From Desulfobacterales bacterium (lineage in GTDB: Bacteria > Desulfobacterota > Desulfobacteria > Desulfobacterales > G963662235), in the NCBI GenBank assembly GCA_963662235.1, contig OY759308.1:1078109-1142108 (forward strand): a DNA stretch of 64,000 bases, given 5' to 3'. The notes below the pieces were generated by a model, which was not told the DNA's origin, made no database searches, and was given only the letters and a program-made list of their open reading frames with translations. This document shows positions 7,899 to 64,000 of this stretch, piece after piece (the first letter of the stretch is position 1; the number at the start of each line of letters is the position of its first letter). The translations under genes and the position numbers were made by a program.

Positions 7899-8159
7899 AC
7901 AAAAAAAGCTCCTTAATTAATGATTTAAAATTTTAAGAATTAATATTCTATTTTTTAAAAAAATTATTTTAGTTTGATTGTTATAAATCTATTTAAGAAA
8001 AGCATAAAAACTATAGTAATAAGAACGTTATTCTATCTACGACTAAAGTTATACTGTTTAAAAAAGTTTTTGTGATTTTTTTTATATAGATAAAAAGTTT
8101 TGTGAAATTAAATAAAAAAGTAAGTTATACAACACTCTCATAGTAAAAGATAAATTTGT

Positions 8160-8354
8160 GAGACCTTTGTACATAGCTCTATTTTGTTTTTATTTTGTGG
8201 TGAAGTAGTATTTTTATACGTCAAACCCAAAATAAAAGCAAAAGAGAGCGTTAGTTCTTATAGGAATTTAGAAGTTTTTTTTAAATTATTAAAATTTAAT
8301 ATTTTGCTTAAAACTACTATTTTTTTTCATAAAAATGTTATGTGCAAAGGTCTC
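8160..8354. mobile_element. MITE copy B (195 bp, inverted relative to copy A), TSD ATTTGT/AATTGT
   Basis: Same inverted ends and internal sequence as 1905-2100 in reverse complement. Flanking 6-mers match 5/6. Confidence 0.85.
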
Positions 8355-8520
8355 AATTGTTTTTTCAATAGATTTTAAATCAAGTATTGCAAAATTAAAT
8401 AAACCCAAAATCTTAAAGAATATTTGAATTAATAATTTTGAAAAGATTATTGAAATTTCCTAATAGACTTAGGGGAAATAACAGTTTCCTTGCCACGCCT
8501 ATAGTAGCACTTTTTATAAG

Positions 8521-16623: not shown

Positions 16624-17261
16624 CGTAGGGCGGGGAGACCCCGCCCCTACGGTTATGATTGCGTGATAAAAATTAAAAAAATCGCAAAAAATTTAATAGA
16701 AACGATGTAGGGGCGTATTGATATACGCCCATTAAACAATGCAATTATAATCAAAAATAATTATTTGGGCACGGCACGCCGTGCCCACGGTGTTGTGTCC
16801 ATACAATAATGCAAACACCAATATAAAAAATGAAAATGTTGTAAGGGCAAAATACGCTTATCCCCAACGCAAAACAAATCATATTGAAACAGTAAAAAAT
16901 TATATTAAAATGATTGAATATCGTAGGGGCGAGACCAAACCCGCCCAATATTATTTTCAAACCGTGTAGAGACAGGTCGCGACCTGTCTCTACGGTGAAA
17001 AAATGTTTTTATGAAATTTGTTTCGTTACGCAAAAAACATTTACGATTTTTTTTTAGCATTATTTGGTTTATCCCGCCCAATATATTGTGTTGTTTTTTA
17101 TGTAGGGGCGTATAGCCATACGCCCATTAAACAATGCAATCATAATCAAAAACAATTATCTGGGCACGGCGTGCCGTGCCCATCTTGCAATTTCATATTG
17201 GTTTAATTAAATGCCGTAGAAATGCAAAATATTACAGAGACGCAAAATCTTGCGTCTCTAC
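16624..17261. repeat. cluster of 8 REP-like nested hairpins in the cobB-ftsK spacer
   Basis: Hairpins at 16625-16650, 16707-16730, 16767-16786, 16923-16946, 16966-16993, 17102-17125, 17162-17181 and 17234-17261. An ~85-bp unit at 16701-16786 is duplicated at 17096-17181. Confidence 0.85.
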
Positions 17262-22400: not shown

Positions 22401-22930
22401 ATGACAAATAAAATACCTTTAGAACATCCTGGAATTATTTTAAAATAAGAATGAGAGCTTTGCACATAGCTCTATTTTGGAATATTTTTGTGGTGTAGTA
22501 GTATATTAATACGTCAAACCCAAAAATATTGCAAAAGAGAGCGTAACTCTTTATAGGGTTTTTTTTAAGTTTTTGTGAAATTATCAAAAGTTGATATTTT
22601 ATTAAAAACTACTATTTTTTTATAAAAAAACATTATGTGCAAAGTTCTCAAGAATTTATAGAGCAATTGGGGACAACTGTTTATACAGTATCAAAAAGAA
22701 CAGGTATTTCGCAAACAGCTCTTAGTGAAATAATAAAAGGAAAAAGAAATATTTCACCAACAAACGCTTTAAAATTGTCAAAATTCTTTGGTGTTTCAGA
22801 CTGTTTTTTCATCAATATTCAAACTAAGTATAATTTAGATTTGGCAAAAGAAAAAAACAAGCAACCTCTTTCAAAAATAACTCCTTTTGAAATAATGAGT
22901 GCAAACAGAGAAAAAATATTGAAACTTTAG
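22401..22930 (+). pseudogene. higA: higA-type XRE antitoxin gene interrupted by a MITE
   Basis: The 15-codon N-terminal piece MTNKIPLEHPGIILK* (22401-22448) and the HTH body from 22650 are in the same frame once the MITE and one TSD copy (203 bp) are removed. An in-frame TAA remains at 22446. No higB nearby. Confidence 0.7.
22453..22649. mobile_element. MITE copy F (197 bp), TSD AAGAAT
   Basis: Ends gagagctttgcacat / atgtgcaaagttctc. AAGAAT at 22447-22452 and 22650-22655. Confidence 0.85.
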
Positions 22931-22950: not shown

Positions 22951-23033
22951 CTTCTACAATATTTCCATTTTTTATATTGGTGTTTGCATTATTCTATGGA
23001 CACAACACTGTAGGGGCACGGCGTGCCGTGCCC
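22951..23033. repeat. composite REP module (inverted copy of 16767-16848)
   Basis: The reverse complement aligns at about 90% with gggcacggcacgccgtgccc-acggtgttgtgtccatacaataatgcaaacaccaatataaaaaatg... Confidence 0.8.
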
Positions 23034-23048
23034 GTATCACATTTCACA

Positions 23049-24287
23049 TTAAACCTTGAAAACCTTTTTAATCTCATTTATTTTAGATTTTGAAATGCCT
23101 ACATTTGTGGCAAGTTTTTGCCAATTGGATAAAGCTTCTTTTGTCTGTTCTATCATAGCTTTAGCGTTCACTTCTTTGATGCCTGCTGTGTGTGCAAGAT
23201 TAAGAAGATGCTTATCTGTGATGTTTTTTCCAACTCCCATCACCATAGTGCTTTGTTCTGTGCCTGGTCCATTTGAATAAGTAATGTCATATGCTGGCGA
23301 AAGTTTCCATTCGCCGAACTCATTCATCAGAAATGAAAAATTTTTACCATGGTCATCTTGGTTGTGGGATAAGACATTAAATAGTGATAGGCGATACATC
23401 TTTTTAACTTCACGCATATCTTTCGTAAGTGTTGCTGTTAGTGCTATTAAGTCTTGATAGTCAAGTGAGGGGACACGAAAATTGATATTTAGTAACCCTG
23501 AGGCACTTACCATATGAAAGCGTTGATTGTTTATGCGGTCAAATCGCTTAATCGCAAAATGTCTGCCATTTTTTTTGGTTTCAAATAGATGTGTTTTTGG
23601 CATATCTAATCCAGCGATTTTTGCCATTTGGCTGTAAACATATTCAATTGCCCCTGCTTCTTTACCGTCACTTGTATTGCTGAATTTTACTATCCAATGT
23701 TCATACTCTTTTTTGAGATTTTTTACACCGTGTATAATTTTGCTCTTGTCTTTATTTACACCAATTAAAGCTTTCGGTCTTGCTCCTGCTGATGAACCAT
23801 TCAAAGCGAGTAATTTTTCAAAAAGGGCATCATACTTACCTTTCAAAATTGCTTCTGCTTCATACGATAAAGTATCAAGATTAACTTCTTCACTTTTCTT
23901 ATCTGTTTCACTGCGGTTAGGATGATATATCAATGCTCCCATACCATTTTCCCCTACATAAGCAAGACTATCCAAAACAGAAAAATTTTTTTGGTTTATG
24001 CCCTTAGCACGCAAAGCACGATCAAGTAACAATCGTCCCCAGCCATCTGGCAAGCTGTCTGAAAACACACCTGCAATTTTATTAGGGAGCATAGGGTCAA
24101 AAGATTGAAGTCCGTTTTTAAGGGGTAGTTTAATCGGTGAAATCTCAAGTCCTTTGCTTAAAAAATCAGAATCATATTCGAAGTAAACTTTACCATCACT
24201 TAGTGCCAATCGCCCAACCGAAAATGGTTTTTTATCGAAAAGAATAGAAACATTTACTAATGAAACTGGTTTATAAGTTTGTGTCAT
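23049..24287 (-). CDS. hipA: HipA-family serine/threonine kinase toxin
   Basis: 412 aa. HipA N-terminal coupling region and catalytic loop QDDHGKNFSF. Overlaps the upstream HTH gene by 4 nt. Confidence 0.85.
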   Translation of the reverse strand: MTQTYKPVSLVNVSILFDKKPFSVGRLALSDGKVYFEYDSDFLSKGLEISPIKLPLKNGLQSFDPMLPNKIAGVFSDSLPDGWGRLLLDRALRAKGINQKNFSVLDSLAYVGENGMGALIYHPNRSETDKKSEEVNLDTLSYEAEAILKGKYDALFEKLLALNGSSAGARPKALIGVNKDKSKIIHGVKNLKKEYEHWIVKFSNTSDGKEAGAIEYVYSQMAKIAGLDMPKTHLFETKKNGRHFAIKRFDRINNQRFHMVSASGLLNINFRVPSLDYQDLIALTATLTKDMREVKKMYRLSLFNVLSHNQDDHGKNFSFLMNEFGEWKLSPAYDITYSNGPGTEQSTMVMGVGKNITDKHLLNLAHTAGIKEVNAKAMIEQTKEALSNWQKLATNVGISKSKINEIKKVFKV

Positions 24288-34200: not shown

Positions 34201-34232
34201 TCAAGATAAACGAAATGAAATTATTTGTAACT

Positions 34233-34557
34233 GTAGGGGCACGGCACGCCTTGCCCCTACATCGTTTCTATTAAATTTTTCACAAATTTTTTTAACGTTT
34301 ATAACAAAATCATAACCGTAGGGGCGGGGTCGCCCCGCCCTTGTGTACGAGATTGATTATTTGCAAAAATCTTTTACATATCAAGAGTTCAGCGAACTAA
34401 AAGACGCCTTGCATAGTTTTTATAATTAAACCACCTAAACTTTCTAATTTGATTGTCGTTTCCGTATGATTTGTTTTTTTCCGTAGGGGCATATAGCTAT
34501 ACGCCCATATTATTTTCCATCATTTTTTCATACGGGCACGGCACGCCGTGCCCCTAC
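34233..34557. repeat. REP-like hairpins at 34233-34260, 34318-34340, 34483-34506 and 34534-34557
   Basis: gtaggggcacggcacgccttgcccctac, gtaggggcggggtcgccccgccc, gtaggggcatatagctatacgccc, gggcacggcacgccgtgcccctac. Confidence 0.85.
34373..34461. repeat. 88-bp direct repeat, copy 2 (orphan duplicate of the rsmA 3' end)
   Basis: Would encode ...FTYQEFSELKDALHSFYN*, duplicating the rsmA C-terminus. Confidence 0.9.
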
Positions 34558-34773
34558 AATATACCGTCAATACAATGGACATCTTACTTAATTATTACCA
34601 AAAATCTCTAATTTTATCTCGTTTTGAAAAACACGAACGAAGCGGAAGGTTTTTAGGAAAGGACTCTTTTATCGAAGCAATGTAACGTCTTTTAAACCGA
34701 AGTCTTGAGCCACAAAAACCCTGACCTAAAAGGAAAGATAAGTAAGGTGTTCCAGAACTCTTGGATTAAAAAA

Positions 34774-35613
34774 TCATTTCAACTTTTTAGTTTCATCTAA
34801 CAAGAAATCTTTAGCATTTTTAGAACTCATAACTTTTTTCCCGATTTCTCTTTCTGCATCTTTTCTTGCTCTTCCAGCAACTCCGCCACCTCTTTTTGCA
34901 ATTTTTTTGTTTTTTGAAAAATTATTAGGTTTTTCTGCTTTGGAAATATCGGTTGTAACTTTTTCCCCCAACATCGTAAAAATCAATTCCAAATCTGTCA
35001 TATTATCTCTTAGGTTTGACTTTGATTTTGAAGAAATATTTTTGAAATTTTTATATTCGTTTGGAGTCATGCCAAAAGTCGCTTTTGAAATTTCTGCAGT
35101 TAAAATTGAAAACTCTTTTTGAGTTCCAACTCCTCTTTCTTTCCATTCATCTGTCAAATCTTGTCTTATAGCAATTCCTCTTAATCTTTTATCAATCCAG
35201 CTTTTTGGGTAGCCTTTTTTTTCATAAATCTCTTTCATCCTCTCTTGTGCTAATTCTGGATTTTCTATTTCTTCTATTCTCTCTTGTCCAACTTGAGCAA
35301 GCCACATTTTAAAAGGCTCTGCTTTTTTACTTGGAATTGACTGGATTATTCTAAAAATTCCTTTAGTATCAGCACAATCTGTTTTATATTTTTTCCCATC
35401 AACACTTTCTAATTTCAGTTGTACACAATTTGTGGACAACTCAATTCCATTTTCAAGTTCTCTTGTTTTTAACATATTCCAATAATTTCTCGGATTTGAA
35501 CTCTCTACAAGAACCCTACAAACATCAACAACTGAATAAAACCATTCTTTATTATACCAAAGCCTTCTTATTTTTTTGTCTTCAAAAACAATTAGTTTAT
35601 TTTTTTCTTCCAT
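34774..35613 (-). CDS. BRO-N domain protein (DinD/antirepressor-like)
   Basis: N-terminus FEDKKIRRLWYNKEWFYSVVDVCRVL fits the Bro-N pattern. C-terminal half LTDEWKERG...NLRDNMTDLELIF. Flanked by an 18-bp inverted motif. Confidence 0.6.
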   Translation of the reverse strand: MEEKNKLIVFEDKKIRRLWYNKEWFYSVVDVCRVLVESSNPRNYWNMLKTRELENGIELSTNCVQLKLESVDGKKYKTDCADTKGIFRIIQSIPSKKAEPFKMWLAQVGQERIEEIENPELAQERMKEIYEKKGYPKSWIDKRLRGIAIRQDLTDEWKERGVGTQKEFSILTAEISKATFGMTPNEYKNFKNISSKSKSNLRDNMTDLELIFTMLGEKVTTDISKAEKPNNFSKNKKIAKRGGGVAGRARKDAEREIGKKVMSSKNAKDFLLDETKKLK

Positions 35614-45712: not shown

Positions 45713-46064
45713 AAGACAGAGCATTGTCATAAGCCGAATTCTGTATTTATAAGCAATCATTCATCTAAGGATAAAAGTTGCCTTTTATCTCTTGCGACCT
45801 ACCCGAAAATAAGACGAGCAGCCTTATAACTTTCCTATTTGGTCTTGCACCAGGTGGGGTTTACAAAGCATTGGTAGTCACCTACCAATCTGGTGCGCTC
45901 TTACCGCACCTTTTCACCCTTACCATAAAATGGCGGTATACTTTCTGTTGCACTTTCCTTCATATCGCTACGACTCTACGTTATAGAGCACCTTGCTCTT
46001 TGGTGTTCGGACTTTCCTCTATCACCTTAAAAGGTAACAGCGATTGCTCGCAATACTCTGTCAA
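45713..46064 (-). ncRNA. rnpB: RNase P RNA, bacterial type A
   Basis: The minus strand reads GAGGAAAGTCCGAACACC (46019-46002), GTGCAACAGAAAGTATACCGCC, GGTAAGGGTGAAAAGGTGCGGTAAGAGCGCACC, GTAAACCCCACCTGGTGCAAGACCAAATAGG and ACAGAATTCGGCTTATGAC. P1 pairs gacagagtattg with caatgctctgtc. The ends are approximate to a few nt. Confidence 0.9.
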
Positions 46065-46127: not shown

Positions 46128-46323
46128 GAGACCTTTGCACATAGCTCTATTTTGTAATATTTTTGTGGTGCAGTAGTATATTAATACGTCAAACCCAAAA
46201 ATATTGCAAAAGAGAGCGTAAGTCTTTATAGGGATTTTAGAGGTTTTTGAAAAAATTATTAAAAGTTAATATTTTTTTCAAAACCACTATTTTTCTATAA
46301 AAAACATTATGTGCAAAGGTCTC
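46128..46323. mobile_element. MITE copy H (196 bp), TSD AGTGAG
   Basis: AGTGAG at 46122-46127 and 46324-46329. Full inverted ends. Confidence 0.85.
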
Positions 46324-46337
46324 AGTGAGATATTTGT

Positions 46338-46373: not shown

Positions 46374-49300
46374 TTATTTTGATATATTGAAAAATCTTTC
46401 AAAGAATTTGGTGAATTTTTCAATTATAGTTTCTCTTTTTTTGGTTCTTTCGCCAGTTTTAGAAAATCTTGATATTGGGGGTAAAACTTTAGTTAATGCT
46501 GTTCCTGTTGTTGTAATATTTCCGTCTCTGAATGAATTTTTTATAAATTTGTATGTTTCTTCATAGTTAAGATTTTCTTCTTTTATTATTTTGTCTAACT
46601 CTTCAATTTTCTTTTTCTCTACAAATTTTTGCCAATCTTTATCTACAACAGATTGAACATTTAGTGATTCAATAAATTGCAAGATAAGGTCTTTTTTATT
46701 ACGAAGTTCTACACTTGAATCTATTGCTTTGTTTATATCTAATAGAATCTCTTTATCTTTTGTGTTGTCTTTATGATATTTTTTAATTAGCTTTAAAATA
46801 TAATCGATATTGATTTCAATTTGTTTGATAAGCTCCATCTCAAAGATAAGATCATCATTAATATTTTCTTTTTCTACATTTTTATCTTTTCTAAACTCAT
46901 TATATAAATCTATGTATAAACTATGATAATCTTGAACATCTCTTTGAGTTAAAATTTCGTTACCTTCAAATTCGTCAAAAGTAGTAAGAATATTTCTAAC
47001 TCTTAAAATTCCGCCATAAAGTTTAATGAACTCTTTTTGATTTTGCTCTCCAACTATTCTTTCTTCAAGAGGAAATTTTTCTTGTAGCTCTTCAATTAGA
47101 CTTTTATATCCTCGCACTTTTTTGCCGTCTTGTTCATATCCATTATAATATTCTTGATATGTTTTTAATAAAACTATGCCACTTGCTTCTTTATCTCCAA
47201 AAAGAGAGATGGCTTCTTTGGTGGCTTTTTCTAAGTTTCTAAAACAAATAATATTTCCAGAGTTTTTTATGGTGTTTAAAATACGATTGGTACGAGAAAA
47301 TGCTTGAAGCAAGCCATGCAATCTTAAATTTTTATCTACCCAAAGAGTGTTTAGCGTAGTTGCATCAAAGCCTGTTAAGAACATATTGACTACTATTAAA
47401 ATATCTATGTCCCTATCTTTTACTCTTTTGCTAACATCTTTATAGTAATTTTGAAATTTATCTGAAGTTGTGTTGTAAGATGTCCCAAACATTTTATTAT
47501 AATCTTTAATAGCGTTTTCTAAAAATTCTCTTGAGCTTGCATCAAGTCCGCTTGTATTTTCAGAATTTTCATCTGCTACCCCGTCATTTTCTTCTTCATT
47601 TACTCCAAAGCTATAGATTGTTGCTATTTTGAGTTTTTTATCGCTTGGTAACTCCTTTATCTGTTTTTTAAATTCAGTATAATATTTTTTAGCCATTTCA
47701 ATAGAAGACACTGCAAAAATAGAGTTAAAACCTGCAAGTCGTCTATCTTTTAACTTATAAAAACTGTTTCTTTTTGTTTTATCATCAAACTTTTCAAGGA
47801 TATATTTTACAATATTGCTTAATCTTTCAGGAGCTAAAAGTGCTGCTTCTCTATCAATAGATTTAACTTTTTTATCTTCAATCTCTTCTGCCTCTTTAAT
47901 TGTAGAAATAAAATCCACTTTGAAAGGTAAAACATTTTTGTCATTAATAGCATCTACAATAGTGTAAGTGTGCAATTTGTCGCCAAAAGCTTGCTCTGTG
48001 GTTTTCAAATCAAATCTACCGCCAGAAGATGAGTTTATTGCAAAAATAGGAGTGCCAGTAAAACCGAAAAGATGATATTTGTTGAATGCTTTTGTGATTG
48101 CTTTGTGCATATCTCCAAATTGAGAGCGGTGGCATTCATCAAAAATTAAGACAATATGTCCATTAAAAATTGTGTGCCCTCTATTTTTTTTAATGAATTT
48201 ATCTAATTTTTGAATTGTTGTAATAATTATTCTTGAGTTTGCATCTCCAAGTTGTTTTTTTAAAACGGCTGTGCTTGTGTTGCTGTTGGCGGCACCTTTT
48301 TCAAATTTCTCATACTCTTTCATTGTTTGATAATCTAAATCTTTTCTATCAACAACGAATAAGACTTTATCAATGTAGGGTAATTTGCTTGTAAGTTGTG
48401 CAGTTTTAAAACTTGTTAATGTCTTTCCTGAACCTGTTGTATGCCAAACATAACCTCCTGCTTTTATTGTCCCAAACTGTTTATAATTTGAGCTTATTTC
48501 AATTTTGTTTAAAATCTTTTCAGTTGCAACAATTTGATAAGGTCGCATGGCCAAAAGCTCCTTATCTGTTGTGAATATGCAGTATTTAGTGAGAATGTTT
48601 AGAATTGTATGTTTTGCAAAAAATGTTTTTGTAAAATCGACTAAATCGGTTATTGGTTTGTTTTTAGCATCTGCCCACCAGCTGGTAAATTCATAACTGT
48701 TGCTTGTTTTTTTTTCTTTTCTTTTTGCTCTTTTATTTGTTTTTGCAAGATGCTCAAATCTTGTAGTGTTGCTGTAATATTTTGTGTGGGTTCCGTTAGA
48801 AATTACAAAAAGTTGAACATATTCATATAATCCACTTGATGCCCAAAAACTTTCTCTTTGATAACGATTGATTTGATTAAATGCTTCTTGAATTGCCACT
48901 CCTCTTCTTTTAAGCTCAATATGGACTAAAGGTAAACCGTTTACTAAAACAGTTACATCATAACGATTTTTATACTTTCCTTCGTCTGTTTCATATTGGT
49001 TAATCACTTGAAGTACATTGCGGTGAACATTATCTTTTCTTAGCAGGTAGATATTTTTACTTACTCCATCATCACATTGTAGAATTTTAATGTAATCTTC
49101 TTGTATAGTGGTTGTTTTGTCTTCTATGCTTTGATTTGGATTTGCTAACTCTTTTTTAAAAAAATAGTCCCATTCGTTATCAGAAAATTCAAAATCGTTT
49201 AATTTTTCTAATTGTTGCCTTAAATTTTTTACTAAATCTTTTTCACTTGTAATATTTAGATGTTCATAAGCTTGTGATTTTAATTGTTCAATAAATGCTT

Positions 49301-49421
49301 TTTCTAATTCTGCTTCGCTCTGATAGTTTTGCGGTTTTTTGCCATAAGGCGAGATATATTCGCAAACAAATGTGTTTTGGGTATCTTGCACCACCATATT
49401 GTAATTAACATTTTTTGGCAT
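46374..49421 (-). CDS. hsdR: type I restriction endonuclease R subunit
   Basis: 1015 aa. HSDR_N region, helicase motif I TGSGKT, motif II FDECHRSQ, motif VI QAFSRTNR. Confidence 0.9.
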   Translation of the reverse strand: MPKNVNYNMVVQDTQNTFVCEYISPYGKKPQNYQSEAELEKAFIEQLKSQAYEHLNITSEKDLVKNLRQQLEKLNDFEFSDNEWDYFFKKELANPNQSIEDKTTTIQEDYIKILQCDDGVSKNIYLLRKDNVHRNVLQVINQYETDEGKYKNRYDVTVLVNGLPLVHIELKRRGVAIQEAFNQINRYQRESFWASSGLYEYVQLFVISNGTHTKYYSNTTRFEHLAKTNKRAKRKEKKTSNSYEFTSWWADAKNKPITDLVDFTKTFFAKHTILNILTKYCIFTTDKELLAMRPYQIVATEKILNKIEISSNYKQFGTIKAGGYVWHTTGSGKTLTSFKTAQLTSKLPYIDKVLFVVDRKDLDYQTMKEYEKFEKGAANSNTSTAVLKKQLGDANSRIIITTIQKLDKFIKKNRGHTIFNGHIVLIFDECHRSQFGDMHKAITKAFNKYHLFGFTGTPIFAINSSSGGRFDLKTTEQAFGDKLHTYTIVDAINDKNVLPFKVDFISTIKEAEEIEDKKVKSIDREAALLAPERLSNIVKYILEKFDDKTKRNSFYKLKDRRLAGFNSIFAVSSIEMAKKYYTEFKKQIKELPSDKKLKIATIYSFGVNEEENDGVADENSENTSGLDASSREFLENAIKDYNKMFGTSYNTTSDKFQNYYKDVSKRVKDRDIDILIVVNMFLTGFDATTLNTLWVDKNLRLHGLLQAFSRTNRILNTIKNSGNIICFRNLEKATKEAISLFGDKEASGIVLLKTYQEYYNGYEQDGKKVRGYKSLIEELQEKFPLEERIVGEQNQKEFIKLYGGILRVRNILTTFDEFEGNEILTQRDVQDYHSLYIDLYNEFRKDKNVEKENINDDLIFEMELIKQIEINIDYILKLIKKYHKDNTKDKEILLDINKAIDSSVELRNKKDLILQFIESLNVQSVVDKDWQKFVEKKKIEELDKIIKEENLNYEETYKFIKNSFRDGNITTTGTALTKVLPPISRFSKTGERTKKRETIIEKFTKFFERFFNISK

Positions 49422-49462: not shown

Positions 49463-49659
49463 GTAGGGGTGGCGTGCCGTGCCCGATTGTCATTCCACAT
49501 TAATTTGATTACAAAATTTAAATTTTTTACATTGGTTTTGATTAAATGTTGTCCGTAGAGACGCAAGATTTTGCGTCTCTACAAGATTTTGCGTTTCTAC
49601 AAGATTTTACATCTCTATGGTTTTATAAAAATATCGGGCACGGCACGCCGTGCCCCTAC
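49463..49659. repeat. REP-like hairpins 49463-49484, 49555-49582 (3' arm reiterated to 49617) and 49636-49659
   Basis: gtaggggtggcgtgccgtgccc; gtagagacgcaagattttgcgtctctac + aagattttgcgtttctac + aagattttacatctcta; gggcacggcacgccgtgcccctac. Confidence 0.85.
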
Positions 49660-49934
49660 AATATTCCGTCAAAACATTTTCCATCTGTTGTAATTAATTT
49701 CAACTGGTTAGTATTACTAACCGTTTCACTTCCTTCAGATTTAAGTTTATTTTTCAGCCATTTCCAATAATTACGAACTTTTTGATAATCGGGTTGTTCG
49801 GTTAATATCCCTATAATCTCTAATATTGAAAACCACCATTTTTGTTTATCTCCATCCCAAATAGTTCTAACTTTTTCTTTTTTGAACAGTTGAATTTTAG
49901 TATTTTTTTGCATTTTTATATTATTCCCTACCAT
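49656..49934 (-). pseudogene. truncated BRO-N gene (paralog of 34774-35613)
   Basis: Its 92 aa align with the first ~95 aa of the 279-aa paralog (RTIWDGDKQKWWFSILEIIG vs RRLWYNKEWFYSVVDVCR; NQLKLITTDGK vs VQLKLESVDGK). The reading frame ends in the TAG of a GTAG hairpin head. Confidence 0.6.
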
Positions 49935-58581: not shown

Positions 58582-59235
58582 TTATTTGTATGCGTGCCCA
58601 AGCAGGAGCTTAATCAAAAACAAAACTAAGCTCCAGAGCAGAATAATAAACAAATAAAAAATTGATAAAAAGAGGAATGAGGCAATTAGTAAAATGCTTA
58701 CAAAACTCGCGAGAAATTTAGTTTTATTATTTGTGATAAAATTTTCTACATCTTGTTTCGTTAAATTGAAATCTGTGAATTGCTTATTTTTTTGTGTTAA
58801 ATCTTGAAAATTAAAAATTTGGATTTTGTTGGAATCTTTAATAATTAGATTGTTTTTATTGACTACAAAACCGACCTCTTTATTTTCTAAAGCATCAGTA
58901 TCAATATTTTCATTGGTATCTATATGAATAAACACATTTTTTTCGTCATAAATATAAGGTGGTAAATTGTTGATACTTAATTCTGAGTTAGTTAGAGTGA
59001 TAGAAACATCATCTGCCACTGTTTCATCAAATTTATTATAAAGTTCTGCAGACAGGTTAATAATCTTGAAAGTAGAAAATCCAGTAAATATTATCGCGAA
59101 AAATCCATTCGCCAAAAACCAAAATCCCCACGAATGAAGTTTTTTGGTATTTTTTTCAACTAAAAATTTCGTCAAAAAACAAGGTTTGAAAATGTCGATT
59201 CCGCGTTTCCAAAATTTCAAGTTTTTAGTTTTCAT
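58582..59235 (-). CDS. hypothetical membrane protein
   Basis: 217 aa. One TM near the N-terminus and two near the C-terminus, with an Asn/Asp-rich middle. No family assigned with confidence. Confidence 0.5.
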   Translation of the reverse strand: MKTKNLKFWKRGIDIFKPCFLTKFLVEKNTKKLHSWGFWFLANGFFAIIFTGFSTFKIINLSAELYNKFDETVADDVSITLTNSELSINNLPPYIYDEKNVFIHIDTNENIDTDALENKEVGFVVNKNNLIIKDSNKIQIFNFQDLTQKNKQFTDFNLTKQDVENFITNNKTKFLASFVSILLIASFLFLSIFYLFIILLWSLVLFLIKLLLGHAYK

Positions 59236-59342
59236 AATTTATAAAAATTAAATTGCTTAGCTTAATTGTCTTTTCTTGTGAATTTTTGTCAAAAAAATTT
59301 TGCAATCCAGTAATAAACGGCTGGATTAAAGTTTGTAATAAG

Positions 59343-59410
59343 AAAATCTCGCGAGATTTTTTAACCCCCCTTAATCCCCCCTTAGAAGGGGGGAATATTT
59401 CGCGAGATTT
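59343..59410. repeat. TCGCGA-armed palindromic module
   Basis: Perfect 18-bp palindrome aaaatctcgcgagatttt (59343-59360), then ccccccttagaagggggg, then atttcgcgagattttt. A second copy of the module is at 59728-59790. Confidence 0.85.
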
Positions 59411-59420
59411 TTTTCTTACG

Positions 59421-59566
59421 ATTTCCCCTTGTGTAGGGAACGGTTTTAAACCGTTCCTTACTTAATTTTAAAAAATTTAAAATTATTTCGGGGTAAAGGG
59501 GATTCGCAGTCAGGCATTTCCCCCTTTTAAGGGGGACTAAGGGGGTTCGCCGTTAGGCGAAAAAAA
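59421..59566. repeat. second copy of the ~150-bp composite G/C-word hairpin module
   Basis: Aligns with 15617-15768 at roughly 85-90% with small indels. Confidence 0.85.
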
Positions 59567-59586
59567 TAGATACACAAAAGGTGTCG

Positions 59587-59614
59587 TTGACAAAAACCCG
59601 ATAATATATATAAT
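59587..59614 (+). promoter_or_regulatory. near-consensus sigma70-type promoter (TTGACA-N16-TATAAT)
   Basis: TTGACA at 59587-59592 and TATAAT at 59609-59614, facing the 59691/59841 ORF. Confidence 0.55.
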
Positions 59615-59840
59615 GCCACTTGATATTATCTCATAATTTTTAGTTATTGAGATGTTTACCTAAAACCCCCTAAAATTAAGAAACAATCAAATGAATTTTA
59701 CAATAGAATCAAAATCAAATTTCAAAGAATCTCGCGAGATTTCGCGACCCCCCCTAACCCCCCTTGGAAGGGGGGAAAAACCTCGCGAGAATTTAAACCC
59801 AAATCCAACCAAACAAGAATTAGCAGATTTAGGAAAAGAA

Positions 59841-61052
59841 ATGGAAAAATCGCGAGAAATTCCGCCAAAAATGACTCGTCGAGAACTTTTAAAATTGGCT
59901 GGTGGTGCTGCTATTGGGACAAGTGTTTTAGGTAAAGTTTTAAACGCTCTTGGTCCAAAATCAGCTGAAGCATCAGAAAGCAATGAAGATGAAAAAATTG
60001 ACTGGAAATATATGCTGAAAAAAAAGAACCGCCACTTTGAAAAAACCAACAAATATGCCCTCCAACCTTTCGACGAAAATGCTTACAATGAAGCACTTAA
60101 TAAAGAAAAAGATCCTTTGGTGGTTGAGAGTATGAAAAATTTCGCGAGAAATGCTCACGAGTTAGAAAACCTTCGCACGCAATGTATGGACGAAAAAAAC
60201 CGTTTAGAGTGGTTTAAAAAAGAGGCGGAAAAATTCGCGAAAAAACTGCGTGCTTACGACATCAAAGGCGAGTGTGCCAAAATCGCAGAGCTTCAAAAAA
60301 CTAATCCGCACCAATATGCCGTAAAACTTGGCGAGCTGACTGACGAGCTCTCTTTTCAGTTGCAAACTGCCAACGCTTTCATTCAAAAATCTTATGCCAT
60401 CGCGAGCGGTAAAGAGGTTAACCCTTCTAAGCCAGCCAGCGGTTCTACTTTTAAAGAAGTGGAAAATTTCAGCTATAAATATGTTTCAGATGTTAATGCC
60501 TCATACGCTGGTTTTTTCCGAACTATCGAACGAGTCAAAAATCCTCCGCCAGACGCAAACAAAGACCGCTCAATCTTGATCCAAGGTGCGGATGGAAAAT
60601 ATCTGCAATTTTTCGCGAAATTTGACACTCAACCGGCAATTCAAGAGTTGGTGAAAGAAAAGGGCGTTGTTTATGAAATGTCGCGTGTGATGAGAGATTT
60701 TTTTAATGAGGTGCCGTGGAAAAGTCCGGATTTACAAGAATTGACAGACAGCGCTACTGGTATCAATAATTTAACTCGCAGATTAAATCTCTATTTATCT
60801 ACTTATGCCGTTTATAATCCTTATAAATTATTTCGCGAAGATTTTGATTGGTATCGCTCTTTGCAAGAAGGGGTAAGTCAAGAGTATGTTGATTTGAGCA
60901 GATTGCAGAATAAAATGCAAAGAATGAGAAAAGCTGATGTTTTTTATAGAGGATTGTTAAAACCGCCTCCTTTTCCAGAAAAAACAAAAAAACTATATAG
61001 AGACTACGGAGCTTCTTACAATAAGTTTATTGATAATAAATATAAATATTAA
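59841..61052 (+). CDS. uncharacterised exported protein with twin-arginine (Tat) signal
   Basis: MEKSREIPPKMTRRELLKLAGGAAIGTSVLGKVLNALGPKSAEA: TRRxLLK motif, h-region and AEA cleavage site. AGGA lies 8 nt upstream of the ATG at 59841. The 59691-59840 part of the track ORF is repeat-derived. Mature part not recognised. Confidence 0.65.
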   Translation: MEKSREIPPKMTRRELLKLAGGAAIGTSVLGKVLNALGPKSAEASESNEDEKIDWKYMLKKKNRHFEKTNKYALQPFDENAYNEALNKEKDPLVVESMKNFARNAHELENLRTQCMDEKNRLEWFKKEAEKFAKKLRAYDIKGECAKIAELQKTNPHQYAVKLGELTDELSFQLQTANAFIQKSYAIASGKEVNPSKPASGSTFKEVENFSYKYVSDVNASYAGFFRTIERVKNPPPDANKDRSILIQGADGKYLQFFAKFDTQPAIQELVKEKGVVYEMSRVMRDFFNEVPWKSPDLQELTDSATGINNLTRRLNLYLSTYAVYNPYKLFREDFDWYRSLQEGVSQEYVDLSRLQNKMQRMRKADVFYRGLLKPPPFPEKTKKLYRDYGASYNKFIDNKYKY

Positions 61053-61127
61053 GAATAATAAGTTCTTATATTTCCAAATAAAAAATTTCGCGAGATTTTA
61101 GAATCTCTATTCATTTTAACTGGTTGG

Positions 61128-61194
61128 TTCCGCGACAAGCACGGAATGACTAATGAAAAACATACCTTTCGTCATTCTGGATTTATCCAGAATC
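61128..61194. repeat. inverted doublet of GTCATTC-headed hairpins
   Basis: ttccgcgacaagcacggaatgac (inverted) and gtcattctggatttatccagaatc, 20 bp apart. Confidence 0.6.
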
Positions 61195-61290
61195 TATAAA
61201 AAATTTAGAAAACAAATCTTTATGTCTTTATGCAAAAAATATTTCTGATTTTTCTCGCAATTTAAAAGAATAATTAAATCTCAAAAAAAT

Positions 61291-61319
61291 TCGCGAAAAA
61301 TTTTCTGATGTGTTAAAAT
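61291..61319 (+). promoter_or_regulatory. putative extended -10 promoter (TGTTAAAAT) with TCGCGA in the -35 slot
   Basis: TGnTAAAAT at 61311-61319. TCGCGA at 61291-61296 lies 17 bp upstream. The ATG at 61344 follows. Confidence 0.35.
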
Positions 61320-61343
61320 GCTTGGAATTTTTAATTTTTCTAA

Positions 61344-64000
61344 ATGCAAAAAACACGATTGGTTCTTTTTATTTTAATTTCCTTTTTGTTTAATATCTCA
61401 AATTTCTCTTTATTAATTTCAAACGAAAATCTCGCGAAAAATTTAGTTTACGCCGAAAGTGCAGGAACAGAAGAAAAAGATGAAGAAGGTGATTCCACAG
61501 ATGCCACAATACAAACATTCAACGCCAAAGACTATCTAAAATCTTACCTGACAGAAGTCCGCGACGCTTACAAAAAATATAAAGAACTTTACCAAAAATA
61601 TTATACCGAAATTGGCGTAGAGCCTTCTGAAAATAGTAATAATGCGGCATACTTTTACGAACAGCGTAAGTCAAGAATGGAAGACGCACAAAATCTTGTC
61701 GTAAAAGCAATCGGTAATGAGGCGAAAATAACAAATGAGAATATTAATGAAAAAATTGAAATTAATGAAACTTTACCAAAGCAACTTTTTACAAGATTAC
61801 AAGACGGTGTAGAAATTTTGATTGAAAGACTTGATGCAGAGCGAGACGAATACGAAAAAGAACGCGAAAAATTAAAAGAACAAGTTGAAGAAATTCGCGA
61901 GATTTATGGCGAGAAATTGAAGATTGATTCAGAAACTGTTAGAATAAAGTTTTGTACAAAAATTATAGACAAGAACGATGGGTTAAAGTGTATGAGAATG
62001 GTAAATGATGAAACAGAAAAAGCTCTTAACTATAATGCTTCTTTTGTGATTAATGAGAAGAATATTTTTGATGAATTTGAAGATAATGTTTTTGTTGATT
62101 TGCTTAAAAATAGTACAAGCAGAAGTGATGTATTACGAGAAAAGAAAGATATGGATAAGTTATGGGAAAAGACAAAAACAAAGTATATTGAAAAGATTAC
62201 AACAGCAGTTGAAGGGAGTCAAGGTGGTGGTGAAGATAAATTGAATGATGAGATTTTAAAATTAAGAATTGCGATTAAGGTGTATGAAACAGGAACATAT
62301 GATCTACAAAAAAAAGGAACATATGAATTAGCACAAGAAAAATTAAACACAGCAAAAGAAAAAGTGAATAACCTTAAAGATGAACGAAAAAATTTGACGG
62401 GAAATTTGACGAAAACAAAAGAAGCGATTGCCAAACTTCAAAATGAGATTAAAGCTTTGAAAAAAGCAGATACTAAAAATGAAGATGAAAAAAAGAAAAA
62501 TAAAGAAGCCATTAAAAGTAAAGAAGAGTTGCTTGAAAAATTAGAAGAGGCGGCGGAACAAGAAGAAAAAGCTTTGGAAGAAAAATTAGAAGAGGCTTAT
62601 AAAAACTTAGAGGACGCGCAAGAAGATTTTGACAAAGCTGAAAAAAATCTCGCGAAATTAAAAATCAAATTAGCAGAAAAATTAAAAGAAAAAGATAGTT
62701 TAAAAAATGGAGTTTTAGACGATTTAATCGATATTTTTAATGATCAGTGTACAGATGACAAATGCACAGATTTCGCGGAAATAATTGAGGCACTGGAATA
62801 TAATAAACAAACTCTGGAAGAAATTATTAATGATATAGCGAGTAAATATGAAGAACATATTAATCAGCATTATAAGTTGTATGATGACTATGAGAAAAAA
62901 TATAATAACTTAATAACTCAAATTAAGAAGATTGTAGCTGGAAAGAATAAAATGATGCCTTTAGATCCTGCTAAATATACGCAAATTTTAGATGATTTAA
63001 ATTTTCAGTCAGAATGGTTTGTTCCTAAAGGTGCAAGTCCTTTATTAAGTGATTTAAAGGGGAAAATTAGATCGTTAGTTTTAGATACAGATAAAACAGA
63101 AACAGATGTAGAGGACATTTTCAAGGAGATTGATACAGCGGTTGAAGAAAATACAGAGTATGGAAAGTTGAAGAGTTGTGTGGAAGAGAATGAAGATTTC
63201 GGGTTTATATTGGATGATTTTAAGTACAATATAAAAAATTATGCAATTTCGTATTATGAAAACGAATGTTATTTGGATATAAATAATAAGAACTTCAAAG
63301 TTCAAAATAATTGTGATGAGTATGCGGAGGAATTACAATTTAATAAAGAAGTATATAATGATGAGTTTGAAATTTCTCGCGAGGAAATTAAAAAATGTTT
63401 TTCTAATAAATTAAGTGCGTTTGTAAAGGCAAAAACAAAATTAACCACACAATCGGGTACAATAGAGATGGCAGAAAAGGAATTAAAAGATGCAGAAAAT
63501 ATTGATGCTATTACTTCAGCACTTGCCAAAAAATCTAAAGCAGAAGAAAAAATAAAAACATTAGAAAACGAAATGAAAGAAATAAACGATCAAATAGATA
63601 AAAAAATGAGCGATTTTGTGCTTTATGATACGGAGTTTGTGCCGAAACGAGCGTATTTACTCGCTGAGTTAAAAAAAGATAAAAAAGAGTATAAAGAAAA
63701 TAAGGACAAGTTATTAGGACAAATTGCTTATATTGAGGAAGCCAACAAGTTGATGAAGAGCTTGGACAATTTTCCAAAAGAGTATAAGGTTTTTGTGGGA
63801 CAAGGGGCGTTGCCTGGTTCTGTCCAAAATAATGAAAACGCTGGATTAGGTGATGTGCAAGATTCATTGCTTTTCTTTGGCTCGTTCATCTTTAAATGGT
63901 CAATGATTGGCGGAATGTTTGGGTTTTTGCTTTTAGGAATTGTCTTTATTTTGCACCCTTATGATCCAGAACTTCTTACATCTGTTAAAAATTGGGGTTT
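61344..64000 (+). CDS. large secreted/membrane-anchored coiled-coil protein, 3' end beyond window (>885 aa)
   Basis: My hand translation from the ATG at 61344 found no stop to the window end. Signal peptide MQKTRLVLFILISFLFNISNFSLLIS...VYA/ES, a long K/E-rich heptad-like region, paired Cys (DQCTDDKCTD), and a TM segment FIFKWSMIGGMFGFLLLGIVFIL near 63890-63955. Not in the ORF track because it has no stop. Confidence 0.8.
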   Translation, partial: MQKTRLVLFILISFLFNISNFSLLISNENLAKNLVYAESAGTEEKDEEGDSTDATIQTFNAKDYLKSYLTEVRDAYKKYKELYQKYYTEIGVEPSENSNNAAYFYEQRKSRMEDAQNLVVKAIGNEAKITNENINEKIEINETLPKQLFTRLQDGVEILIERLDAERDEYEKEREKLKEQVEEIREIYGEKLKIDSETVRIKFCTKIIDKNDGLKCMRMVNDETEKALNYNASFVINEKNIFDEFEDNVFVDLLKNSTSRSDVLREKKDMDKLWEKTKTKYIEKITTAVEGSQGGGEDKLNDEILKLRIAIKVYETGTYDLQKKGTYELAQEKLNTAKEKVNNLKDERKNLTGNLTKTKEAIAKLQNEIKALKKADTKNEDEKKKNKEAIKSKEELLEKLEEAAEQEEKALEEKLEEAYKNLEDAQEDFDKAEKNLAKLKIKLAEKLKEKDSLKNGVLDDLIDIFNDQCTDDKCTDFAEIIEALEYNKQTLEEIINDIASKYEEHINQHYKLYDDYEKKYNNLITQIKKIVAGKNKMMPLDPAKYTQILDDLNFQSEWFVPKGASPLLSDLKGKIRSLVLDTDKTETDVEDIFKEIDTAVEENTEYGKLKSCVEENEDFGFILDDFKYNIKNYAISYYENECYLDINNKNFKVQNNCDEYAEELQFNKEVYNDEFEISREEIKKCFSNKLSAFVKAKTKLTTQSGTIEMAEKELKDAENIDAITSALAKKSKAEEKIKTLENEMKEINDQIDKKMSDFVLYDTEFVPKRAYLLAELKKDKKEYKENKDKLLGQIAYIEEANKLMKSLDNFPKEYKVFVGQGALPGSVQNNENAGLGDVQDSLLFFGSFIFKWSMIGGMFGFLLLGIVFILHPYDPELLTSVKNWG

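Follow-up and report, generated by a model that had tools for sequence, protein, structure and literature searches.

We analysed a window of 64,000 nucleotides from the genome of a Desulfobacterales bacterium (contig OY759308.1, positions 1,078,109 to 1,142,108 of the forward strand) and found that the reading frame that begins at window position 61344 and leaves the window at its right-hand end, hereafter the target, is a real gene for a protein of 915 residues. The product is best read, with somewhat more confidence than doubt on our part, as a lineage-restricted exported envelope protein whose helical ectodomain is tethered by a C-terminal hairpin and which probably serves as a scaffold- or adhesin-like protein together with a partner that is encoded just upstream and carries a putative twin-arginine translocation (Tat) signal. 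Homologues of the hairpin occur in small signal-peptide proteins with weak matches to models of VirB2/TrbC-type pilins of type IV secretion systems (T4SSs), and both genes belong to an island, about 5.5 kb long, that is studded with TCGCGA palindromes. What appears to be new here is the combination of a pilin-like hairpin carrying a giant passenger with a palindrome-marked island.

The target is a real gene

The plus-strand frame from the ATG at 61344 held 885 sense codons and no stop through position 64000, as an earlier note on this DNA had claimed, whereas each of the remaining five frames of the same segment was interrupted by 26-124 stops and none stayed open for more than 116 codons. The probability of 885 stop-free codons, computed from the region's own base composition, is about 1e-38, which bears out the view that an open frame of more than 2.6 kb would hardly arise by chance. 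The GC contents at codon positions 1, 2 and 3 (0.43, 0.24 and 0.25) are coding-like. A protein in an NCBI/ENA-derived collection, P0001 (915 aa, encoded on a 2,133,799-bp contig), was 100% identical to the window translation; the gene therefore spans 61344..64091 and ends 91 nt beyond the window. The frame had been described as uncalled, but public annotation did call P0001, and the gene does continue past the window as had been supposed, but for only 30 codons. Only antisense frames had been listed at 62219-63867 because the list of open reading frames (ORFs) omits those that leave the sequence. These minus-strand ORFs are by-products of the target: the one at 63535-63867, for example, translates to an F/L/S-rich string, which is typical of the antisense of a K/E-rich coding sequence.

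A probable exported helical protein with a two-helix anchor

Hydrophobic segments were predicted at aa 5-27, 848-873 and 884-910, a layout of a signal peptide followed by two helices with a short loop. We read aa 1-37 as a probable Sec signal peptide, putatively cleaved within a VYAE motif that is conserved in all three N-terminal copies (those of the target and of the truncated homologues P0004 and P0007, described below); the target has no lipobox Cys. Such a peptide would carry the N-terminus over the cytoplasmic membrane and would place outside the cytoplasm an alpha-helical ectodomain of about 800 residues, with an N-terminal domain, two K/E-rich coiled-coil stalks and four probable disulfides. 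The eight Cys residues of the target, already noticed as scattered pairs, fall into four sequence-local pairs (204/216, 469/474, 612/642 and 657/685), which fit an oxidising extracytoplasmic location and may form disulfides.

A proxy for heptad periodicity exceeded the 99% level of shuffled sequences at aa 159-188, 328-382, 402-449, 475-504 and 720-764. These segments sum to about 26% of the ectodomain, so that the former description of some 800 residues of coiled coil was overstated. In a single-sequence AlphaFold2 (AF2) model the full target was all-alpha, and only aa ~330-430 exceeded a pLDDT of 70 (helices H296-374 and H380-452, pLDDT 70-84). A three-sequence AF2 model of a 116-aa C-terminal construct gave a helical hairpin (H27-70/H76-114, pLDDT 74-81). 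The hydrophobic helix that had been noticed at about 63890-63955 is the first transmembrane helix of this hairpin (TM1, aa 848-873, 63885-63962), but the anchor has two helices and not one, the second (TM2, aa 884-910, 63993-64073) lying mostly beyond the window and being joined to the first by the linker HPYDPELLTSVKNWG. The hairpin would tether the protein to the membrane, with both of its ends outside and the short loop in the cytoplasm. The proposal of the earlier note is supported in outline: the gene belongs to no known family, and its product is a helical protein that would be exported and anchored at its C-terminus.

Database searches

Full-length searches with the target returned no Pfam family at E<=0.01; in NCBIfam and PADLOC only SMC and JetC models matched, at 16-18 bits and over the coiled coil at aa 326-523, and neither PHROGs nor the PDB sequences gave a family beyond coiled-coil noise. 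No match was obtained in the plasmid and phage collections by protein or DNA, two scans of viral contigs and two of JGI metagenome contigs returned nothing, and a scan of genome contigs with P0001 found no relative; one with the RmuC protein gave relatives of 43% identity at most, too distant to indicate a taxonomic position. The Cys-rich middle, a profile of the N-terminal domain and the partner protein P0002 gave nothing significant against the PDB.

Two proteins were matched by phmmer among 1.84 billion cluster representatives: P0004 (205 aa), which is 76% identical to target aa 1-190 (E=4.4e-75), and P0005 (316 aa), whose last ~85 residues align to target aa 828-908 (E=5e-4). For the middle ~630 residues no relative was detected in any collection searched. 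A word-indexed search of 5.8e9 proteins returned P0001 alone and missed P0004 and P0007, which are 76-84% identical, probably because K/E-rich proteins took up its 8000 candidate places, and the library of 1.84 billion representatives did not return P0001 itself; a moderately diverged full-length homologue could therefore be hidden inside the P0004 cluster, and the negatives of these tools are weaker than they look. A C-terminal profile run against the 5.8e9-protein database returned nothing, the query's own protein included, which we assume to be a limitation of the tool.

That the target might be a cytoplasmic coiled-coil ATPase of the SMC/MukB/JetC kind, or might belong to one of the known families of adhesins, was refuted by the extent and scores of the hits and by the export features, and we regard this reading as next to impossible. 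The SMC_prok_A/B models reached 16.4-16.7 bits (aa 308-528) and JetC 18.3 bits (aa 330-445), but the curated SMC cut-offs are 567-729 bits and the matches are restricted to the coiled coil. The target has neither an SMC head nor a hinge domain and gave no Walker motif hit; unlike a cytoplasmic SMC, it carries a signal-like segment at the N-terminus and a pair of TM helices at the C-terminus. Adhesin and autotransporter families were absent from the Pfam result at the threshold given above, and neither an LPXTG motif nor a beta-barrel domain was seen in the sequence. The earlier note, which had recognised neither an SMC-like protein nor a known adhesin, is upheld on this point.

The C-terminal hairpin and its probable link to pilins

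The earlier statement that no family could be recognised is correct for most of the protein but not quite for the last ~95 residues, which appear to be remotely related to VirB2/TrbC-type pilin-like proteins. The target and the C-terminus of P0005 were 35% identical over 101 aa (pairwise E=3e-13), and their Smith-Waterman score of 133 compares with 32 +/- 5.5 for shuffles that preserved the composition of each segment (z=18); the likeness therefore goes beyond mere TM composition. The motifs common to the two, some of them polar and located outside the helices, are G-x-LPG, NE-AGL, D-x-LL and S-x-S-(I/L)-VKLVL, and the target module runs in the order G-x-LPG, AGL, TM1, short loop, TM2 and an S-x-S-L-VKLVL tail.

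The hairpin region of P0005 scored 28.1 bits against TrbC/VirB2 (PF04956, gathering score 27.9), 23.5 bits against T4SS_pilin (PF18895), which is below the cut-off, and 21.5 bits against NF045849 (cut-off 40). P0006, the sole relative of P0005 (52% identity), scored 24.3, 14.5 and 22.3 bits against PF04956, PF18895 and NF045849, respectively. Both are signal-peptide proteins, each encoded on a metagenomic contig of ~2 kb; the P0005 gene follows a LytR_cpsA_psr gene, and each of the two precedes another gene for a signal-peptide helical protein. VirB2-like pilins occur in variable arrays in Patescibacteria (PMC12102498), which the contexts of P0005 and P0006 appear to resemble, and from the LCP-family neighbour we infer a Patescibacteria-type origin of these two proteins. 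This chain of similarities suggests that the target hairpin is homologous to pilin-like proteins and stands in a remote relationship to the VirB2/TrbC type; membership of the target itself in TrbC/VirB2 is not established.

The same similarities could be taken further, to a true T4SS-type pilin-like subunit: a T4SS encoded downstream or elsewhere would pull the VirB2-like hairpin out of the membrane and polymerise it, or use it to cap a filament, and the 800-aa passenger would be displayed as an adhesin; we consider this quite unlikely. The VirB2 propilin in the membrane has both termini out and the loop in. This is the topology predicted for the target, whose hairpin is homologous to proteins matching the TrbC/VirB2, T4SS_pilin and Mbov_0395 models, and an N-terminal fusion would face the exterior of the filament; the variable arrays formed by patescibacterial VirB2-like proteins (PMC12102498) also speak for it. 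However, the target itself matches no pilin model (full-length searches with the pilin models gave no hit at E<=0.01), the fold search returned only generic hairpins, genes for VirB3, B4, B6 and D4 were not found in the window, and a passenger of 800 aa on every subunit is sterically hard to fit to the known packing of VirB2. The role that we favour instead is that of a scaffold or adhesin-like protein that is anchored in the membrane and lies in the periplasm or at the surface; it would probably act with its putatively co-transcribed and Tat-exported partner and not as a polymerising pilus subunit.

The upstream partner

The partner gene encodes P0002, for which neither Pfam nor NCBIfam gave a family. 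Its twin-arginine motif reads TRRELLK, and that of its relative P0003, encoded in a second genome, reads TRRDFFK (TTRRDFFK); in each protein the motif is followed by an h-region and by SAEA/S. The Pfam model TAT_signal scored only 12.1 bits against P0002 (cut-off 22.7). A sigma-70-type promoter lies upstream of the partner gene (Table 1), and the 291-nt spacer before 61344 holds no promoter of comparable strength; it is therefore plausible that the upstream promoter drives both genes and that the two are co-transcribed.

A palindrome-marked island

The target and its partner, together with a DUF1189 gene that may form the left end, make up an island of ~5.5 kb. Among 39 window genes ranked by atypicality of codon usage, the partner gene and the DUF1189 gene were the top two (DUF1189 second) and the target was fifth. 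The GC content at third codon positions (GC3) of the island genes is 0.25-0.33 versus 0.17-0.22 elsewhere, GCG makes up 18-37% of their Ala codons (3/8 in DUF1189) versus a background of 6%, and the observed/expected ratio of CpG is 1.23 in the island versus 0.73. By its codon usage, GC3, GCG share and CpG content, the island thus looks foreign in composition.

TCGCGA is expected 3.5 times per 64 kb, and 19 of its 20 sites in the window lie within 58707-63382, where no other hexamer is as strongly enriched (162-fold relative to the remainder of the window) and where TCGCGA supplies 19 of the 26 occurrences of CGCG. The surrounding palindrome, of ~18 bp (AAAAWYTCGCGARAWWTTT), has the consensus AAAA(T/A)(T/C)TCGCGA(G/A)A(A/T)(A/T)TTT. 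With a spacing of ~250 nt, the sites are spread over both spacers and three genes, where they are not confined to a single reading frame, and they employ the otherwise rare GCG and CGC codons. The sole TCGCGA outside the island forms the loop or centre of another kind of hairpin, perfect and GC-rich (GTAGAGACAGG-TCGCGA-CCTGTCTCTAC, 16962-16997), which is followed by an A-rich stretch; this element has probably nothing to do with the island motif and is rather a terminator or of the REP type.

A 67-nt composite within the partner gene adds 17 residues (ISRPPLTPLGRGEKP-type) to P0002 that are absent from P0003. Its sister composite lies in the spacer at 59345-59411, with a CCCCCC/GGGGGG hairpin between duplicated copies of TCGCGAG.

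A second genome and the truncated copies

P0003, which is at least 90% identical to P0002 and belongs to the same 90% cluster, is encoded on a 1.6-Mb ENA contig at a locus with a different neighbourhood (L030), where an IS3-type element adjoins the module. Window positions 59499-61905, comprising the partner gene, the spacer and the first 187 codons of the target, correspond to L030 9809-12144 at ~90% DNA identity. All 10 TCGCGA sites of the 21-kb L030 locus lie within this shared segment (at L030 10042-12134), and ten sites are positionally conserved. The recurrence of the segment with all of these sites supports the link that had been drawn between the target, the Tat gene and the TCGCGA cluster; co-occurrence of the two genes elsewhere, which the note had suggested looking for, was found in part, in that the Tat gene is accompanied by the 5' end of the target but the target copy there is truncated. 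A block of 750 nt in the partner gene (59949-60698; L030 10202-10951) is 99% identical, with flanks at 85-90% and short patches at ~50%, which suggests that gene conversion or transfer took place recently. The comparison of the window with L030 gave a dS of 0.13-0.16 and, for the partner gene, a dN/dS of 0.43.

On its right-hand side the homology breaks off immediately behind the TCGCGA at 61895, and on the left it stops at a TCGCGAG at 59400, which in L030 is a degenerate TAGCGAG. The L030 homologue of the target, P0007 (199 aa; 84% identity by tblastn with the target N-terminal domain), stops right after the site equivalent to 61895, where it is abutted by the end of an intergenic repeat (TTAATAGAAACGATGTAGGGGCACGG...) that also occurs at window 34230-34290. 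P0004 ends like P0007 (...REILIEAM and stop) and is encoded on the same 2,133,799-bp contig as P0001, so the source genome has both a full-length and a truncated copy. In the three copies aa 64-187 are near-invariant, and the signal peptide and an acidic linker are variable.

The truncated copies raise the question of whether the target is an intact but dispensable ORFan, a cargo of a repeat-riddled, horizontally acquired island that is heading for decay, which we judge to be unlikely. Such a fate would agree with a family found in two closely related genomes only, among ~15 billion proteins, with the truncation of two of its three copies by a repeat element at codon ~187, with the dN/dS of 0.66 for the target N-terminus and the atypical codon usage, and with the insertion sequence beside the module in L030. 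But 915 stop-free codons in DNA of 30% GC need maintenance, aa 64-187 are almost invariant while the linker is variable, and the perfect upstream promoter is kept in both genomes.

We also considered that the TCGCGA palindromes are recombination sites, site-specific or homology-facilitated, which shuffle the full-length gene with partial copies in a system of surface-protein variation. The recurrence of the sites through the genes and across reading frames and their rare codons, the end of window/L030 homology at sites on both sides, the duplicated TCGCGAG that flanks the mini-element, the mosaic nature of the three N-terminal copies and the second, partial copy on the same chromosome all speak for this idea, which we nevertheless find very improbable: no recombinase gene was found in the visible part of the island, most of the shifts in identity lie away from TCGCGA sites, the comparison is limited to two DNA copies, and insertion of a common repeat explains the truncations more simply. 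An equally slight chance is given to a bolder version, in which the island is a programmed variation system, the ~18-bp palindrome, reiterated through two genes for exported proteins, is the crossover or insertion site at which segments and mini-elements are swapped with partial copies elsewhere, and the 915-aa protein, a giant ectodomain on a VirB2-type hairpin, is a full-length expression copy whose surface-displayed product is diversified.

In the favoured reading of an exported envelope protein, the gene pair sits in an island of foreign composition that is mosaic between genomes; small repeat elements have been inserted at its TCGCGA palindromes, and the homology between copies breaks there.

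Points against the favoured reading

Several observations weigh against an exported, hairpin-tethered envelope protein of pilin-related anchor. The dN/dS of the 187 N-terminal codons of the target was 0.66, and the other two copies, P0004 and P0007, are both truncated at codon ~187, which may mean that the family is in decay. The isolated C-terminus of the target (97 aa) matched no pilin model at E<=10, so the pilin link is transitive via P0005, and the Pfam score on which it depends is borderline. When the hairpin model was compared with the PDB by Foldseek, all matches were generic hairpins (E>4), the C-terminal profile found no pilin among the PDB sequences but only TM noise from G-protein-coupled receptors, and the loop between the helices is non-basic. 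A scan of the 61 kb upstream, which covered ORFs of at least 150 aa, revealed neither a T4SS (VirB3, VirB4, VirB6 or a coupling protein) nor other obvious partner machinery. The AF2 model of the full protein is poor (mean pLDDT 44.6), and the signal peptide, topology and disulfides are putative assignments from sequence features.

Significance

If the hairpin is truly of the VirB2 type, a pilin membrane hairpin can bear a passenger of 800 residues in an ordinary bacterium of free-living size, the pilin-like fusion architecture would extend beyond the reduced Patescibacteria, and the target would be a candidate for a scaffold at the surface or in the periplasm of a lineage that is uncharacterised. 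The palindrome array, in which a 162-fold local enrichment coincides with insertion points and homology breakpoints, offers a compact and testable example of a process that acts on specific DNA sequences inside coding regions, be it binding, insertion or recombination. At present the target is an ORFan of narrow range and modest practical importance, an oddity rather than a breakthrough.

Genomic context and repeats

The 61 kb upstream of the target are ordinary chromosome, with genes for FlgE, RF1, Rho, futalosine hydrolase, MetH, flavorubredoxin, FtsK, PGI, HipA, LspA, XseA, FlhB/FliR, AlaRS, RNase P RNA, HsdR, MreBC, TruA and RmuC. The host is AT-rich (~31% GC) and flagellated and has the futalosine pathway and flavorubredoxin; with an IVYWREL estimate of ~37 C it is a probable mesophile. 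The RNase P RNA is of bacterial class A (45714-46059, minus strand, 312.8 bits). A HipA-family toxin kinase (23049-24287), a gene of the phage-associated Bro-N family (34774-35613) and a type I restriction R subunit (46374-49421), all on the minus strand, stand among the housekeeping genes, which suggests further small mobile or defence insertions. In the related genome, L030 2988-4806 encodes a DeoC-like protein and a 3-dehydroquinate synthase (DHQS, PF01959). This pair constitutes the archaeal-type route to 3-dehydroquinate, which is uncommon in bacteria and could serve to place this lineage.

Two families of intergenic repeats were seen in both genomes (Table 1). The first consists of elements of ~200 bp that resemble miniature inverted-repeat transposable elements (MITEs), with terminal inverted repeats GAGACCTTTGCACATA...TATGTGCAAAGGTCTC and many copies of 76-97% identity; it had no match in the plasmid collection. 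The second consists of short GC-rich hairpins in spacers, such as GTAGGGGCACGGCGTGCCGTGCCCCTAC; in L030 one of these abuts and truncates the target homologue, and another lies upstream of the module in the same orientation.

Table 1. Coordinates of the target, of its predicted protein segments and of other features (window positions unless L030 is given)
Feature	Position	Strand	Remarks
Target CDS, window part	61344..64000	+	full CDS 61344..64091 = P0001, 915 aa
Probable Sec-type signal peptide, aa 1-37	61344..61454	+	n-region MQKTR, hydrophobic core aa 5-27, VYA/E(S/D)
N-terminal helical domain, aa 61-187	61524..61904	+	common to the truncated copies P0004 and P0007
Main K/E-rich coiled-coil stalk (predicted), aa 328-449	62325..62690	+	heptad proxy >99% shuffle level; AF2 helices
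Second strong heptad segment, aa 720-764	63501..63635	+	heptad proxy, AF2 model
C-terminal pilin-like module, aa 821-914	63804..64000 (window part)	+	homology to P0005
Tat-signal partner gene, P0002, 453 aa	59691..61052	+	putative twin-arginine signal MTRRELLKLAGGAAIGTSVLG...SAEA/SES; no known family
Sigma-70-type promoter, TTGACA-16-TATAAT	59587..59614	+	12/12 match; conserved in L030
DUF1189 membrane-protein gene	58582..59235	-	PF06691 E=7.6e-17; two TCGCGA palindromes; atypical codon usage
TCGCGA core array, 19 sites	58707..63382		each the centre of an ~18-bp palindrome
67-nt composite TCGCGAG..CCCCCC-TTGG-AAGGGGGG..TCGCGAG	59728..59794	+	direct-repeat family D4, in frame in the Tat gene
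MITE-like repeat, ~200 bp	1896-2103, 8159-8360, 22434-22650, 46128-46324		
MITE-like repeat, ~200 bp	L030 2471-2668, 4805-4990, 17502-17690, 19172-19380		
GC-rich hairpin repeats	34230-34275, 34453-34574, 23004-23041, 49630-49680, 16627-16714; L030 8150-8190, 12143-12316		

Comparison with known systems

With SMC and JetC proteins the target has in common the heptad-rich K/E composition of aa 326-523, a likeness that is compositional only; unlike them, it is devoid of an ATPase head and hinge and is predicted to be exported. The Mbov_0395 family (NF045849), a pilin-like conjugal transfer protein of mycoplasma integrative and conjugative elements (ICEs), is matched weakly by P0005 and P0006 in the hairpin region, whereas the target has no match and no ICE context is visible.

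Canonical TrbC/VirB2 pilins (PF04956) are made as precursors of ~100-130 aa and are encoded beside virB3/virB4. The target resembles them in its apparently cleavable signal peptide, in its two C-terminal hydrophobic helices joined by a short loop and in its predicted topology, but it is a protein of 915 aa with an ectodomain of ~800 aa and not a small hairpin precursor (~100-150 aa), and it differs further in lacking a match of its own to the models, adjacent T4SS genes and a basic loop. Closer in layout are the VirB2-like proteins of the Patescibacteria type, which likewise combine a signal peptide, a helical ectodomain, a Gly/Pro-rich linker and a C-terminal two-TM hairpin. The target ectodomain, however, is about four times longer (800 versus ~200 aa) and unrelated in sequence, its host is a flagellated bacterium with 2.1 Mb and not a reduced epibiont, neither an array nor T4SS genes are visible at its locus, and it fails the pilin models.

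The palindromic composite in the partner gene recalls another known system. Rickettsia palindromic elements insert in frame into genes, and the 67-nt composite has likewise come to lie in frame, adding 17 residues and leaving the frame intact. The two differ in that their sequences are unrelated, the composite is flanked by duplicated TCGCGAG, and the host, with its flagella, MetH and futalosine pathway, is not a Rickettsia.

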